Virus record (IMG/VR): IMGVR_UViG_2526164661_000007
Direction: 5' to 3' (one strand)
Origin: a virus
Lineage: Duplodnaviria; Heunggongvirae; Uroviricota; Caudoviricetes
Length of the DNA: 24,976 nucleotides
Numbering within the stretch: position 1 is the stretch's first letter; every line of letters begins with the position of its first letter. Positions 1 to 8,888 of this stretch are shown piece by piece. The notes beneath the pieces are model-generated. The model searched no databases and was not told the origin of the DNA. It saw only the letters and a program-made list of their open reading frames with translations. A program made the position numbers and the translations under genes.

Positions 1-513
1 ATCAGCAGCAAAAGTGCGACGGCAGAAGAAGCCCTGAAGCGAATCAGTGAACTGTACGCCATCGAGAATGAAATACGGAGATTACCAGAGTCAGAGCGTC
101 TTGCAGCCAGGCAGCAGCGAAGCAAAGCGTTACTGACGTCGCTGCATGAATGGATGGTGGAGAAGAATGGCACGCTGTCGAAAAAATCCAGACTGGGCGA
201 AGCGTTCAGCTATGTACTGAATCAGTGGGACGCCCTCTGTTATTACAGTGATGACGGTCTGGCGGAGGTGGACAATAACACAGCGGAAAGAGCGCTTCGT
301 GCAGTCTGTCTCGGAAAGAAAAATTACGTGTTCTTCGGTAGCGATCACGGCGGCGAGCGTGGAGCACTGCTGTACGGGCTGATCGGCACCTGCCGACTGA
401 ACGGTATCGATCCGGAAGCGTATCTGCGCCATATTCTGAGCGTACTGCCGGAATGGCCCTCCAACCGTGTTGACGAACTCCTGCCATGGAACGTAGTACT
501 CACCAATAAATAA
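1..513 (+). CDS. IS66-family transposase, C-terminal part (5' end lies outside the window)
   Basis: Frame 1 is open from position 1 to TAA at 511-513. The translation (...[55 protein letters not shown]...DELLPWNV) matches the conserved C-terminus of IS66-family transposases as I recall it. Confidence 0.75.
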
Positions 514-541
514 GCGTCAATACGGTGCTCCGTTGACGCTT
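1..541 (+). mobile_element. IS66-family insertion sequence, right-hand portion with putative terminus
   Basis: Transposase 3' end is followed by a perfect 9-bp palindrome AAGCGTCAA...TTGACGCTT (512-540) ending in CTTAC, whose reverse complement GTAAG is the usual IS66-family terminal motif (recalled). Exact end not verifiable without the left end. Confidence 0.45.
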
Positions 542-553
542 ACGAATAATCTG

Positions 554-1339
554 ATGGTCATTGATGGTATTGAAGTTCGTCGTGATGCTTATGGGCGTTA
601 CAGCCTGAACGATCTGCACAGGGCTGCTGGTTCTCTGGATAAGCATAAGCCTGCATTCTGGCTCCGCAATGAGCAAACTGAGCGTTTAATAAGCGAGTTG
701 CAGATTTGCAACTCGGTCAATATAGAGTCAGTTAACGTTATTCGTGGCGGAAATAACCAGGGGACGTATGTCTGCAAAGAACTGGTGTATGCCTATGCAA
801 TGTGGATCAGCCCGTCATTCCATCTGAAGGTGATCCGTACTTTCGACATGGTAACCAGCGCACCGGAAAAATTATCCGGACAGGCTGCTGACAAGATGCA
901 GGCTGGTGTGATTCTGCTGGACTTTATGCGCCGGGAATTAAACCTGTCTAACTCTTCAGTGCTTGGTGCCTGTCAGAAACTCCAGGAGGCTGTTGGCTTA
1001 CCGAATCTGGCACCGCGCTATGCCATTGATGCTCCTGCTGACGCGCCTGATGGCTCAAGCCGCCCCACGCTGTCACTGAGTGCACTGCTGAAGCAGTATG
1101 GTATCCGCCTGACAGCTAATCAGGCATATCACCAGATGGTGAAGCTGGGGATCGTCGAGCAGCGCGAACGATACAGCCGTACCGCGATTAACAACATCAA
1201 AAAATTCTGGTCGCTGACGGCGAAAGGCTGCATGTTCGGCAAGAACATCACCAGTCCTGCAAATCCGCGCGAGACGCAGCCGCATTTCTTCGAATCCCGA
1301 TTCCCTGAGCTGTTAAAGCTGCTCGATACCGTTCATTGA
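554..1339 (+). CDS. KilA-N domain protein (antirepressor-like), C-terminal domain of unknown function
   Basis: ORF 533-1339; first ATG at 554 gives [26 protein letters not shown]...[18 protein letters not shown], a typical KilA-N N-terminus. The TTG at 533 lies inside the IS terminus. Confidence 0.7.
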
Positions 1340-1346
1340 GGTGACC

Positions 1347-2336
1347 GTGAGAGCACTACTGACCCCTGAAATTGCCCCGCGTATGGGGATCGTATTGTTC
1401 AGGCCAGGTTCAGAGCTGATGCCCCTGTTTATGCAGGGGCGTGTCCTGCTGGAGCCTGAGCCGGAACGTTATTCATCTTTTGCCAGTGGTGCCGTTCCGG
1501 CGGCATCACAACCGCTGGCGGATGATCCTGCCATTCGGGCCGTGTTCCGCAATGAGGCTGTGATCCGTCGGGCGGGGGGCGTGGAATGCCTTGAGAGCTG
1601 GTTACTTCGTGAAACAGGCTGCCAGTGGCCTCATTCCGGCTGGCACAGCGAGAATATGACCACAATGCGACACGCGCCGGGCGCAATCCGTCTGTGCTGG
1701 CACTGTGATAACCAGTTGCGCGATCAGTTCACGGAACGGCTGGAATCAATGGCAACGGATAACTGTGCCCGGTGGGTGTTATCTGTCGTGCGTCGGGATC
1801 TCGGTTTTGATGACAGTCACGTTGTGACAATGCCGGAACTGTGCTGGTGGCTGATTCGTAATGACCTGGCGGATGCCTTACCGGAAAGTGCAGCCCGTAA
1901 GGCACTGAGATTACCGAAGCCTGTTGTGCCGTCTGTTACCCGGGAAAGTGACCTTGTGCCTTCGGTTCCTGCCACCAGCATCATCCAGGATAAAGCGAAA
2001 AAGGTGCTGGCGCTGAAAGTGGATCCGGAGTCGCCGGAGTCTTTTATGTTACGCCCCAAACGTCGCCGCTGGGTTAATGAAAAGTACACGCGATGGGTTA
2101 AGACGCAGCCGTGCGCATGTTGTGGAAAACCTGCTGATGATCCCCACCACCTGACAGGTCACGGTCAGGGCGGAATGGGTACAAAAGCGCATGACCTCTT
2201 TGTGTTGCCTTTGTGCAGAAAGCATCACGACGAGCTGCATGCGGATACCGTGGCATTTGAAGAGAAGTATGGCTCCCAGCTTGAGCTGATATTTCGTTTT
2301 ATCGATCGCGCACTGGCGATTGGTGTGCTGGCCTGA
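1347..2336 (+). CDS. DUF968-family protein with C-terminal Cys/His (HNH-like zinc finger) motif
   Basis: ORF 1341-2336. C-terminus is [46 protein letters not shown] at 1347 is preceded by GAGGTGA; GTG 1341 and ATG 1381 are alternative starts. Sits before Q as in many lambdoid nin/late regions. Confidence 0.65.
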
Positions 2337-2353
2337 TTTTGTGGAGAAAGTTA

Positions 2354-2737
2354 ATGCGTGATATTCAGATGGTTCTTGAACGTTGGGGAGCGTGGGCGGC
2401 TAATAATCATGAAGATGTGACCTGGTCGTCCATTGCCGCCGGTTTTAAGGGATTAATTCCTTCAAAAGTAAAATCTCGCCCGCAATGTTGTGACGATGAC
2501 GCGATGATCATTTGCGGGTGCATGGCCCGTCTGAAAAAGAACAACAGCGATTTGCACGATTTATTAGTAGATTATTATGTAGTCGGTATGACATTCATGT
2601 CACTGGCAGGTAAGCATTGCTGCTCTGATGGTTATATCGGGAAAAGGTTACAGAAGGCTGAGGGCATAATTGAAGGGATGTTAATGGCATTAGATATCCG
2701 GTTAGAGATGGATATCGTTGTTAATAACTCTAATTAA
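2354..2737 (+). CDS. quuD: Late-gene antitermination protein Q, small QuuD-like family
   Basis: ATG at 2354 preceded by GGAG; 127 aa beginning [24 protein letters not shown], recognised from memory as the DLP12-type Q homologue. Cys-rich segment [12 protein letters not shown]. Confidence 0.8.
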
Positions 2738-2754
2738 TATGCCAATTGTTTACT

Positions 2755-2789
2755 AAAAATTATTAAAAATGGGGCGTTGAGACGCCCCC
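2755..2789 (-). terminator. Intrinsic terminator (GC stem plus T-tract on the - strand), distal end of the porin 3' hairpin cluster
   Basis: Stem GGGGCGT/ACGCCCC (2771-2788) with loop TGAG. On the - strand it is followed by ATTTTTAATAATTTTT (complement of 2751-2770). Confidence 0.5.
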
Positions 2790-2926
2790 AAAAATAAAGG
2801 GTAATATATAACAGAAGGTTTATATAGTTAGAAGCAAAGTTGTGCTTCTAAAGGAAGTGGCTTGAGGGAGCCACTTATATGTTGGGGAGGCAACGCCTCC
2901 CGCAACATATCTTTTTCGTAATCAGA

Positions 2927-4024
2927 TTAGAACTGGTAAACCAGACCTACAGCAACGATGTCATCAGTGCTTACACCGAGTGCTTTAGTGAAGTCATTTT
3001 TGTCAAGCAGGTTGATTTTGTAATCAACGAAAGTAGACATATTTTTGTTGAAGTAATAGGTTGCACCTACATCAACATATTTGACTAAGTCCTGATCGCC
3101 CCATACTCCAAGATCCTTACCTTTAGATTGCAGGTAAGCAACGGACGGACGCAGACCGAAATCGAACTGATATTGTGCAACAGCTTCGAAGTTTTGGGCT
3201 TTATTAGCAACGAAGTGATCAGCAAATACAGTCATATTCTGGGTTTCAGAATAGGTAGTGGCCAGGTAAATGTTGTTAGCGTCATATTTCAGACCTGCGG
3301 CCCAAACTTCTGCATTTTTACCGGAAGCAAATACTTCAGGAAGAACTTTCCCTGCATTAACTTGAGTGTCGGTACGATCAGATTTCGCATAAGTTGCACC
3401 GATACCGAATCCTTCGTATTCATAGGTAGCAGAGAAACCGAAGCCATCACCGTTACCTTCAGTGTAGTTATCGAAATCGCTACGATCGTTTTTGCCTTGG
3501 TACTGAGCAGCAAAGTTTAGACCATCAACCAGACCAAAGAAGTCGTTGTTACGATAGGTTGCAACACCAGTGGTGCGACCAGTCATGAACACATCTGTTT
3601 GGGTCCAGGTATCGCCACCGAATTCTGGCAGAACGTCAGTCCACGCACCGATGTCGTATGCTACACCGTAGTTACGGCCGTAATCGATTGAGCCGTAGTC
3701 ACCGAATTTCAGGCCTGCAAATGCAAGACGGGTTTTGTCTTTGGAGGAACCTTGAGATTCAGCGCGGTTGCCTTTGAATTCATATTCCCACTGACCGAAA
3801 CCAGTCAGTTGATCGTTGATTTGGGTTTCACCTTTGAAGCCAAGACGGGCATAAGTAGTATCACCATCATCTGCATCATTAGAGGAGAAGTAGTGCTTAG
3901 CATTAACTTTCCCGTACAGATCCAGCTTGTTACTGTCTTTATTATAAATTTCAGCTGCCTGAGCAGACATCGCCATCAGTACTGATGCAGCTACAGCAGA
4001 AATTGCCACTGTTAATTTTTTCAT
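2927..4024 (-). CDS. nmpC: Outer-membrane general porin, NmpC/Lc/OmpD family (prophage moron), apparently intact
   Basis: ORF 2927-4084 on the - strand; internal ATG at 4024 gives [23 protein letters not shown] signal peptide followed by [16 protein letters not shown]..., ending ...VGLVYQF (C-terminal Phe typical of beta-barrel porins). 365 aa. Confidence 0.9.
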
Positions 4025-4233
4025 CGTGAGCCCTTTTTTTGAACTATTATTAAAAAATGATGTCACTGCGCGATAAATATTCATCTAATCAATGTGATTA
4101 TTTCAAGATGTAAGTTTTGGTTTCTCGTTTGATTTGTGAAGTAGATCTCTATTTTTATCTGAACTTTTTTCTATCGAATCCTATTCATAGCTCTTTGCTG
4201 AATAAAAATAAATCTATTAGCCAATTTATATTA

Positions 4234-8368: not shown

Positions 8369-8888
8369 ATGGAAGTCAACAAAAAGCAGCTGGCTGACAT
8401 TTTCGGTGCGAGTATCCGTACCATTCAGAACTGGCAGGAACAGGGAATGCCCGTTCTGCGAGGCGGTGGCAAGGGTAATGAGGTGCTTTATGACTCTGCC
8501 GCCGTCATAAAATGGTATGCCGAAAGGGATGCTGAAATTGAGAACGAAAAGCTGCGCCGGGAAGTTGAAGAACTGCGGCAGGCCAGCGAGACAGATCTCC
8601 AGCCAGGGACTATTGAGTACGAACGCCATCGACTTACGCGTGCGCAGGCCGACGCACAGGAGCTGAAAAATGCCAGAGACTCCGCTGAAGTGGTGGAAAC
8701 CGCATTCTGTACTTTCGTGCTGTCGCGGATCGCAGGTGAAATTGCCAGTATTCTCGACGGGATCCCCCTGTCGGTGCAGCGGCGTTTTCCGGAACTGGAA
8801 AACCGACATGTTGATTTCCTGAAACGGGATATCATCAAAGCCATGAACAAAGCAGCCGCGCTGGATGAACTGATACCGGGGTTGCTGA

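Follow-up and report, generated by a model that had tools for sequence, protein, structure and literature searches.

DUF968 proteins bear a zinc-finger HNH motif (Curtis et al. 2014, PMC4118853), and in the classification of Jablonska et al. 2017 (PMC5714182) DUF968 (YdfU) and DUF1364 (YbcO, PDB 3g27) together make up group 7 of the His-Me finger superfamily. The latter study also recorded RusA, Q and antirepressor genes as neighbours of DUF968, and proposed a role in recombination. The biochemistry of Ref of phage P1 (PDB 3plw), a RecA-dependent nuclease, has been published (PMC4330346, PMC4713147), and Gp16 of Staphylococcus phage PhiNM1 (HNHc_6, PF16784) is a dsDNA-binding nickase that is stimulated by RecA (Xu et al., NAR 2026, PMC12817073). 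The growth arrest caused by Gp16 requires RecA, and the residues mutated in that protein belong to a zinc site (C148, C181 and H184) and an active centre (H157, H185 and H189) (PMC12817073). NinG/Rap of lambda, a branch-specific HNH endonuclease, shares with the DUF968 proteins both the superfamily and the genomic slot, i.e. the late nin region shortly before Q. For the YdfU-type proteins themselves, the searchable literature yielded no experiment, biochemical or genetic; where ydfU does come up in papers (as incidental point mutations, in a GWAS association with HUS and in a y-ome list), no functional data are given, and the E. coli K-12 copy is still named as a “y” gene.

The gene considered here lies in a window of 24,976 nucleotides from a caudoviricete virus record (IMG/VR IMGVR_UViG_2526164661_000007); “the window” refers to this whole stretch. 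An earlier note on this DNA had called its product a DUF968 protein, and membership is secure: the Pfam DUF968 model (PF06147) matches residues 162-328 of the protein with 269.9 bits against a cutoff of 27.8 (E=1.3e-80), covering positions 2-171 of the 171 in the model. PHROG 96 (“HNH endonuclease”) matches over the full length (E=1.6e-175), and identity to E. coli K-12 YdfU is 57% in a colinear alignment of residues 1-329 with residues 1-349. YdfU (b1560, Qin prophage) has the same two-domain layout and likewise lies directly upstream of Q (ydfT/QuuQ), but its linker is 20 residues longer, its Q is of the Antiterm rather than the QuuD type, and its upstream neighbour is rem, Qin being a decayed prophage. 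Genes 98-99.9% identical to the one in the window are carried by phages Kati, SfII and cdtI, by several Stx2-converting phages and by E. coli genomes numbering in the hundreds, and there the trio is annotated as “KilA-N / DUF968 (or HNH endonuclease) / Q”. Among 1.84 billion representative proteins, 3200 relatives were found at E<=0.001, full-length members extending down to ~27% identity, and a single 90%-identity cluster holds 9520 member sequences. There is nothing unusual about the gene, which is a very widespread member of a known family. The earlier note had left it without an assigned role; for the enterobacterial family this holds as far as experimental roles in the searchable literature are concerned, but the HNH inference, although right, is already known, since PHROGs, phage annotations and the His-Me finger classification (PMC5714182) record it. 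What the present analysis adds is a precise link to Ref and Gp16, a conserved second zinc domain (predicted), and a corrected description of the conserved neighbourhood.

The coordinates of the gene and its surroundings are collected in Table 1. The ORF as listed (1341..2336, plus strand) encodes 331 aa from GTG 1341, and the alternative start at GTG 1347 gives 329 aa. On sequence grounds GTG 1347 is likely to be the start and is preferred over GTG 1341, because it sits 5 nt past the GAGG core of the GAGGTGA Shine-Dalgarno, because database homologues are 329 aa long with the N-terminus MRALL, and because all 80 related loci have a start codon at the aligned first position (ATG in 38, GTG in 38 and TTG in 4). 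The coordinate of this codon had been given correctly before, and the distance of 7 nt (1340-1346) that separates it from the KilA-N stop (TGA 1337-1339) is exactly as claimed. Downstream, Q begins at ATG 2353, 16 nt after the DUF968 stop, and is preceded by a GGAGAA ribosome-binding site. Such close packing of the KilA-N gene, the DUF968 gene and Q implies co-expression. No NCBIfam model matched the KilA-N, DUF968 or Q proteins, no Rfam family was found anywhere in the window, and a promoter and terminator scan around the DUF968 gene returned nothing exceeding shuffle expectation. GC content drops at 2336, from 0.55-0.60 to about 0.40. Minus-strand ORFs are present within the gene at 1429-1686, 1817-2089 and 2049-2240; protein-level conservation across genera is that of the plus frame.

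Table 1. Features of the window at and around the DUF968 gene, with the basis on which each was placed.
Feature	Position	Strand	Basis or detail
3' part of IS66-family transposase gene (stop 511-513) and right end of the element (...CGCTTAC)	1..543	+	Pfam DDE_Tnp_IS66, IS66_C; intact-phage homology starts at 541-544
KilA-N domain gene, upstream neighbour; first surviving in-frame ATG at 554	554..1339	+	Pfam KilA-N E=2.2e-26; PHROG 129; junction alignment
Shine-Dalgarno GAGGTGA for GTG 1347, overlapping the KilA-N stop	1338..1344	+	Read from sequence
YdfU-family (DUF968) CDS, 329 aa plus stop (2334-2336)	1347..2336	+	Pfam DUF968; PHROG 96; identity to YdfU
N-terminal domain, residues 1-190	1347..1916	+	Putative zinc ligands C92 (1620-1622), H100 (1644-1646), C117 (1695-1697), C120 (1704-1706)
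Basic linker, predicted disordered, residues 191-242	1917..2072	+	pLDDT <50 at residues 194-208 and 215-242
Conserved linker-end motif, residues 224-242	2016-2072	+	Family conservation
Predicted HNH / His-Me finger nuclease domain, residues 243-329	2073..2333	+	Zinc ligands C256, C259, C290, H293; catalytic centre H268, H294, H298
Q antiterminator, QuuD type, downstream neighbour	2353..2737	+	Pfam Phage_antitermQ E=9.8e-54; RefSeq quuD in near-identical genomes
Porin gene	2927-4084	-	Placed by position (DLP12: nmpC in equivalent slot)
Holin, lysozyme, spanin and lambda-like packaging/head genes	Downstream of porin ORF		Placed by position and phage Kati/DLP12 annotation

The last ~85 residues carry the HNH-type zinc/histidine cluster that the earlier note had read from the letters, with each residue where it was claimed to be (C256-x2-C259, D264-D265-P266-H267-H268, H282 and C290-R-K-H293-H294-D-E-L-H298, C258 included), and Pfam, PHROG, fold and profile comparisons (the profile-HMM and structure checks that the note had proposed) all agree with it. 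Conservation was counted among 113 distinct family members of 25-98% identity: C256 is kept in 112, C259 in 105, H267 and H268 in 109 each, D283 in 112, C290 in 107, and H294 and H298 in 108 each. Position 293 is H or C in 105 members (H in 78, C in 27), an alternation that is the behaviour expected of a zinc ligand. The full-length AlphaFold2 model, built from a shallow alignment, is confident at residues 55-190 and 243-329, with the linker at low confidence. In the predicted C-terminal domain the beta-beta-alpha metal-finger fold of the His-Me finger nucleases is found, with the catalytic His where strand 1 ends and His metal ligands on the helix (H268, H294 and H298), together with the structural CCCH/CCCC zinc site (C256, C259, C290 and H293) of the zinc-finger subclass. 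Residues 243-329 are strongly predicted to be an HNH (His-Me finger) nuclease domain that zinc stabilises and in which all zinc ligands and catalytic histidines are intact, and the domain is predicted to be active because the zinc and active-site positions are conserved across the family.

The closest solved fold to the C-terminal domain is that of Ref, followed by the HNH domains of Cap5, IscB, YbcO, McrA and Gme/GVE2. The link needed fold comparison, as a sequence search of the PDB with a shallow family profile gave marginal matches only (YbcO E=0.42, IscB E=0.77). The HNH core aligns with Ref at E=1e-5 by hhalign, and with YbcO at E=7e-6. The relationship to Gp16 is visible by BLASTP of the HNH core (E=3e-11, 42% identity over 59 aa; hhalign probability 95%) and is reciprocal in Pfam, where Gp16 passes the gathering threshold of DUF968 and the C-terminal domain, scanned by itself, passes that of HNHc_6. 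Residues C148, C181, H184, H157, H185 and H189 of Gp16 align with C259, C290, H293, H268, H294 and H298, respectively, and the counterparts of these mutated residues are kept in 105-109 of the 113 family members. The CxxC, H and CxxHHxxxH elements are spaced nearly equally in the two cores, the H-to-C gap being 22 here versus 24 in Gp16, and both genes are early phage genes close to replication genes and RusA. By contrast, the C-terminal domain alone scored 15.7 bits against RecA_dep_nuc (PF16786), the family model of Ref, below its gathering score of 26.9 (E=0.017), and for NinG/Rap (PF05766) there was no Pfam match and no significant sequence relationship (hhalign probability 5.7%).

Outside the HNH core the relatives differ from the window protein. 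YbcO of DLP12, at 96 aa, consists of the HNH core only and has neither the N-terminal domain nor the linker. Ref has no structured N-terminal domain, and in P1 its gene is located beside cre/c8 under C1 control rather than in a nin region. The Gp16/phiETA Orf20 type has a NinB/Orf-like N-terminal domain fused to the HNH, and this domain is lacking in the window protein.

The N-terminal 250 residues had been described as having no recognisable motif, and this does not hold: the Pfam model begins at residue 162, and residues 1-190 form a confidently predicted conserved domain. When residues 1-200 were modelled with a deeper alignment (30 sequences, 20-46% identity), pLDDT reached 92.8 and pTM 0.79. 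The predicted fold consists of a short beta unit, helices, a beta-hairpin (104-117), a helix (118-124) and three more helices. Among the same 113 members C92 and C117 are invariant, position 100 is H in 92 and C in 17, position 120 is C in 73 and H in 40, and D121 is kept in 107. In the model the C92/100/C117/120 pattern indicates a four-ligand zinc site that bridges the segment before the hairpin to the start of the helix, a topology that the structural zinc site in the C-terminal HNH finger also has. Residues 1-190 are strongly predicted to be a separate, family-specific domain with four conserved putative zinc ligands and without a conserved catalytic His, position 101, the equivalent of that residue, being His in only 53 of 113 members.

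Fold comparison of the N-terminal domain gave weak matches, 12 of the best 25 being chains of HNH nucleases or of the His-Me-finger protein YbcO (the HNH matches include ScoMcrA, two IscB, EcoKMcrA, Ref, GVE2, TagI, Cap5, Cascade-HNH and T5 SciA). NinB/Orf (1PC6) is absent from these best 25, and a Foldseek search against the BFVD viral structures returned no match at E<=0.001. A profile-profile alignment of the N-terminal with the C-terminal domain is colinear, pairing C92 with C256, position 100 with H267, C117 with C290 and position 120 with H293 (E~0.009); an equal score was reached in 2 of 300 column shuffles. Tentatively, and somewhat more likely than not, the N-terminal domain is an HNH-like zinc finger that is degenerate and non-catalytic and would serve to bind DNA or a partner. 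The linker that follows ends in a conserved motif (D226 in 108, P237 in 111 and K238 in 112 of 113 members), and it recalls the unstructured, positively charged DNA-binding segment ahead of the HNH core of Ref (PMC4330346).

Gene context was compared in 80 species-level loci drawn from a narrower family alignment (48-98% protein identity), all in prophage DNA of the Enterobacterales type. The next plus-strand ORF is a Q antiterminator in at least 71 of 79 loci, and these Q proteins belong to three Pfam families (Phage_antitermQ, including the related DUF1133, in 50, Antiterm in 20 and Phage_antiter_Q in 1). Directly upstream, in 78 loci, are an antirepressor-like gene of the Rha/ANT type (29), RusA (16), KilA-N (12) or ORF6N (2), the remainder being mostly methylases or LexA-like proteins. 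RusA is the second gene upstream in 36 of 74 loci, and is first or second upstream in 52. In 48 of 78 loci the start of DUF968 overlaps with the stop of the gene before it ((A/G)TGA). In the intact phages SfII and Stx2a_WGPS2 the order is replication genes, a gene annotated as PAPS reductase (dam in SfII), a repressor-like gene, RusA, KilA-N, DUF968 and Q. In more distant members (25-34% identity) that retain an intact HNH, the gene is likewise placed between replication gene P and Q; in one case it adjoins RusA, and that genome has an additional, terminase-adjacent HNH gene.

The place between KilA-N and Q that the earlier note took to be conserved is therefore so on the Q side, but not on the KilA-N side. 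Likewise, the tight packing in the window implies co-expression as that note had suggested, but a specific KilA-N/DUF968 pair is not indicated, because Rha/ANT-type genes and RusA each precede DUF968 more often than KilA-N does. What is conserved is a place for DUF968 as the final nuclease gene in the nin operon ahead of Q, with RusA usually close by. The gene is strongly predicted to belong to the rightward delayed-early (nin) operon, in the order RusA, antirepressor-like gene, DUF968 and Q, and to be usually coupled in translation to the preceding gene. For comparison, lambda has the order NinB...NinG-NinH-NinI-Q, and DLP12 has ybcN-ninE-ybcO-rusA-ylcG-quuD. In tblastn searches of the 80 loci with 5-kb flanks, NinG, NinB/Orf, NinH, YbcN and a separate YbcO were found in none and RusA in 55; the absence of NinG and YbcO from DUF968 loci is a correlation within these flanks, with no matched control set.

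Considering domain content and position together, we lean slightly towards the reading that the protein is a delayed-early DNA nickase of the nin region that acts on recombination or replication intermediates, possibly with RecA. On this reading the two-domain YdfU/DUF968 protein would occupy the slot held by NinG/Rap or YbcO in other lambdoid phages, and would nick branched or RecA-bound recombination or replication intermediates in a Mg/Mn-dependent manner during lytic growth. DNA or partner binding would be supplied by the linker and the N-terminal domain, the latter perhaps a degenerate copy of the HNH finger. As RusA usually co-occurs, a junction resolvase is already present, so the DUF968 protein cannot be regarded simply as “the” resolvase. 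The most specific hypothesis is that cutting is guided or stimulated by RecA; it is rather less likely than not, and is drawn by analogy, since both the nearest fold (Ref) and Gp16, the nearest characterised relative, act together with RecA. However, the NinB-like domain that Gp16 needs for RecA binding is absent here, which is a counterpoint to transferring function, and the match to the Ref family model only below threshold is a counterpoint to a Ref-type function. It is rather unlikely that the protein is, in full, the lambdoid counterpart of Ref and Gp16, i.e. a RecA-guided nickase in which an inactive N-terminal and an active C-terminal finger form a built-in pseudo-dimer that positions one cut on a D-loop or a stalled fork, and which as a protein replaces lambda Orf and Rap and feeds recombination-dependent replication.

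A nuclease directed against the host, which would chiefly damage or condense host DNA, halt host replication and favour the lytic cycle instead of processing recombination intermediates of the phage, is a doubtful alternative. The RecA-dependent growth arrest by Gp16, the toxicity of Ref and its amplification of lysis during SOS are consistent with it, the HNH cores being homologous, but the gene is kept intact in very many E. coli prophages (the cluster of 9520 sequences given above), it is located in the nin recombination/replication block beside RusA, and no report of ydfU toxicity was found in the searchable literature. A host-directed activity overlaps with the nickase reading and does not exclude it.

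The 7-nt gap with its shared Shine-Dalgarno/stop region, and the presence of the KilA-N/DUF968/Q trio in 922 E. coli genomes and in SfII, Kati, cdtI and Stx2 phages, would fit a dedicated two-gene system with the KilA-N protein, for example in exclusion or regulation. This is improbable given that KilA-N is the upstream gene in so few of the species-level loci, that distant relatives have no KilA-N neighbour, and that no defence-system protein model of PADLOC matches the DUF968 protein. KilA-N::DUF968 fusions were rejected as evidence for a functional pair: rather than designed fusions they are internal deletions that join KilA-N residue ~235 to DUF968 residue ~70, and other variants are duplications or chimeras.

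HNH enzymes are common among homing nucleases, and the gene sits at a mosaic joint, with a GC drop at its end and any of three Q families following it in different phages. Nevertheless, it is quite improbable that the gene encodes a selfish, free-standing homing endonuclease lodged at the module joint ahead of Q, as the syntenic position is stable from 25% to 98% identity in several genera, the gene is commonly coupled to upstream genes in translation (48 of 78 loci), and it carries a large conserved extra domain and a linker. Presence/absence polymorphism between otherwise identical flanks was also not conspicuous in the hit lists of near-identical genomes.

That the zinc fingers serve for binding only, making the protein a non-catalytic DNA-binding regulator, is very unlikely with H268, H294 and H298 kept in the window protein and in 108-109 of 113 relatives, even though the HH dyad is lost in some distant relatives (P0184, P0188 and P0253), one of them in an early-left type region, and an annotation as transcriptional regulator exists for one family member (PMC5714182). 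Least probable is a terminase-associated HNH protein of the HK97 gp74 type that assists cos cleavage and packaging: such helpers are known (PMC12817073), the phage is a lambdoid one of the cos type and the protein has an HNH domain, but the terminase ORFs (placed by position and Kati annotation) begin only at 8369, ~6 kb downstream, past Q, the porin gene and the lysis genes, and SfII and a distant relative (L094) have a separate terminase-adjacent HNH gene (PF01844-type or annotated) besides DUF968.

In E. coli, Shigella and Salmonella, a very large proportion of prophages, Stx2-converting phages among them, have a YdfU-type gene adjoining the late-gene switch. If the preferred nickase activity is RecA-dependent, then phages of Gram-negative and Gram-positive bacteria would share a strategy in which an HNH nickase co-opts RecA. 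If the RecA-guided pseudo-dimer reading is true, the activity could also influence induction and yield of Stx phages, because the gene adjoins Q in many Stx2 phages.

The copy in the window differs from those of intact phages at its upstream border. An IS66-family element ends at 543 (...CGCTTAC), within the native ATG (542-544) of the KilA-N gene; in the junction alignment intact phages read GAGGAGAAACGAAGTATGAATAAT, and the window reads ...GACGCTTACGAATAAT. As the end of the element falls inside the KilA-N start region, that gene has lost both its native start codon and its ribosome-binding site. The element also displaces the early promoter and the genes found ahead of KilA-N in intact relatives, among them RusA, and probably separates this copy from its promoter. 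With the insertion lying between operon and early promoter, the window copy may therefore not be expressed normally, and this prophage may be impaired in expressing both DUF968 and Q.

The KilA-N/DUF968/Q block of the window is interrupted on its upstream side by an IS66-family element, the right end of which (...CGCTTAC) stops at position 543, within the original start codon (ATG) of KilA-N. The insertion thus removes the KilA-N ribosome-binding site and start codon, and severs the block from the early operon; the genes that precede KilA-N in intact relatives, including RusA, are cut off from it by the element. On the downstream side, base composition shifts abruptly at the boundary between DUF968 and Q, from a GC content of 0.55-0.60 in the DUF968 gene to approximately 0.40 across Q and the porin region beyond it (window 2200-2800). 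This shift is consistent with the occurrence of three unrelated Q families after DUF968 in different phages. The minus-strand ORF that follows Q matches nmpC of the DLP12 prophage in slot and orientation; its position suggests an OmpC/NmpC-like porin gene, which would be a “moron” of the lysogenic-conversion type.

Features flanking the KilA-N/DUF968/Q block (window coordinates)
Feature	Position	Strand	Context
Terminal hairpin-like inverted repeat	512-521 / 533-542		Right end of IS66-family element
Bidirectional terminator-like hairpin	2771-2788		
385-aa ORF	2927-4084	-	Lies between Q and the holin-position ORF

Alignment of the window protein with its close relatives (A1) shows intragenic mosaicism in the E. 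coli alleles P0030, P0041, P0049 and P0066, which have diverged from it over residues 1-115 and are almost identical to it from C117, a proposed N-terminal zinc ligand, onward. This pattern places a recombination joint at the conserved LCWHCDN segment. Within the HNH domain, residue 270 (nt 2154-2156), two residues past the catalytic His, is Thr in the window copy (HHLTGHG), versus Ile in no fewer than 90% of its close relatives in alignment A1. The catalytic HH dyad itself is lost in the distant DUF968 relatives P0184, P0188 and P0253 (27-32% identity). The gene encoding P0253 does not precede Q, and is found instead in an early region rich in Ead/Ea22, DUF1382 and Metallophos (loci L092 and L093), with a Ref-like RecA_dep_nuc gene no more than 5 kb away in L093.

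Some database entries (P0052, P0065, P0063, P0014, P0001 and P0016) comprise deletion fusions that join KilA-N to DUF968 in frame (KilA-N::DUF968), a 526-aa internal duplication of DUF968, and also chimeras with other prophage genes. Such entries seem to have arisen through prophage decay or assembly error rather than as designed fusions. Enterobacterial-type prophage segments are also present in loci labelled as Vagococcus, an Actinomycetes MAG, a Veillonella parvula MAG and Chryseobacterium (L014, L028, L052 and L053), and these host labels are likely to result from contamination or mis-binning. L052 has its ORF layout in common with L049 and L050, two E. coli/Shigella loci (YdfU-type, going by 57% identity and ORF length).
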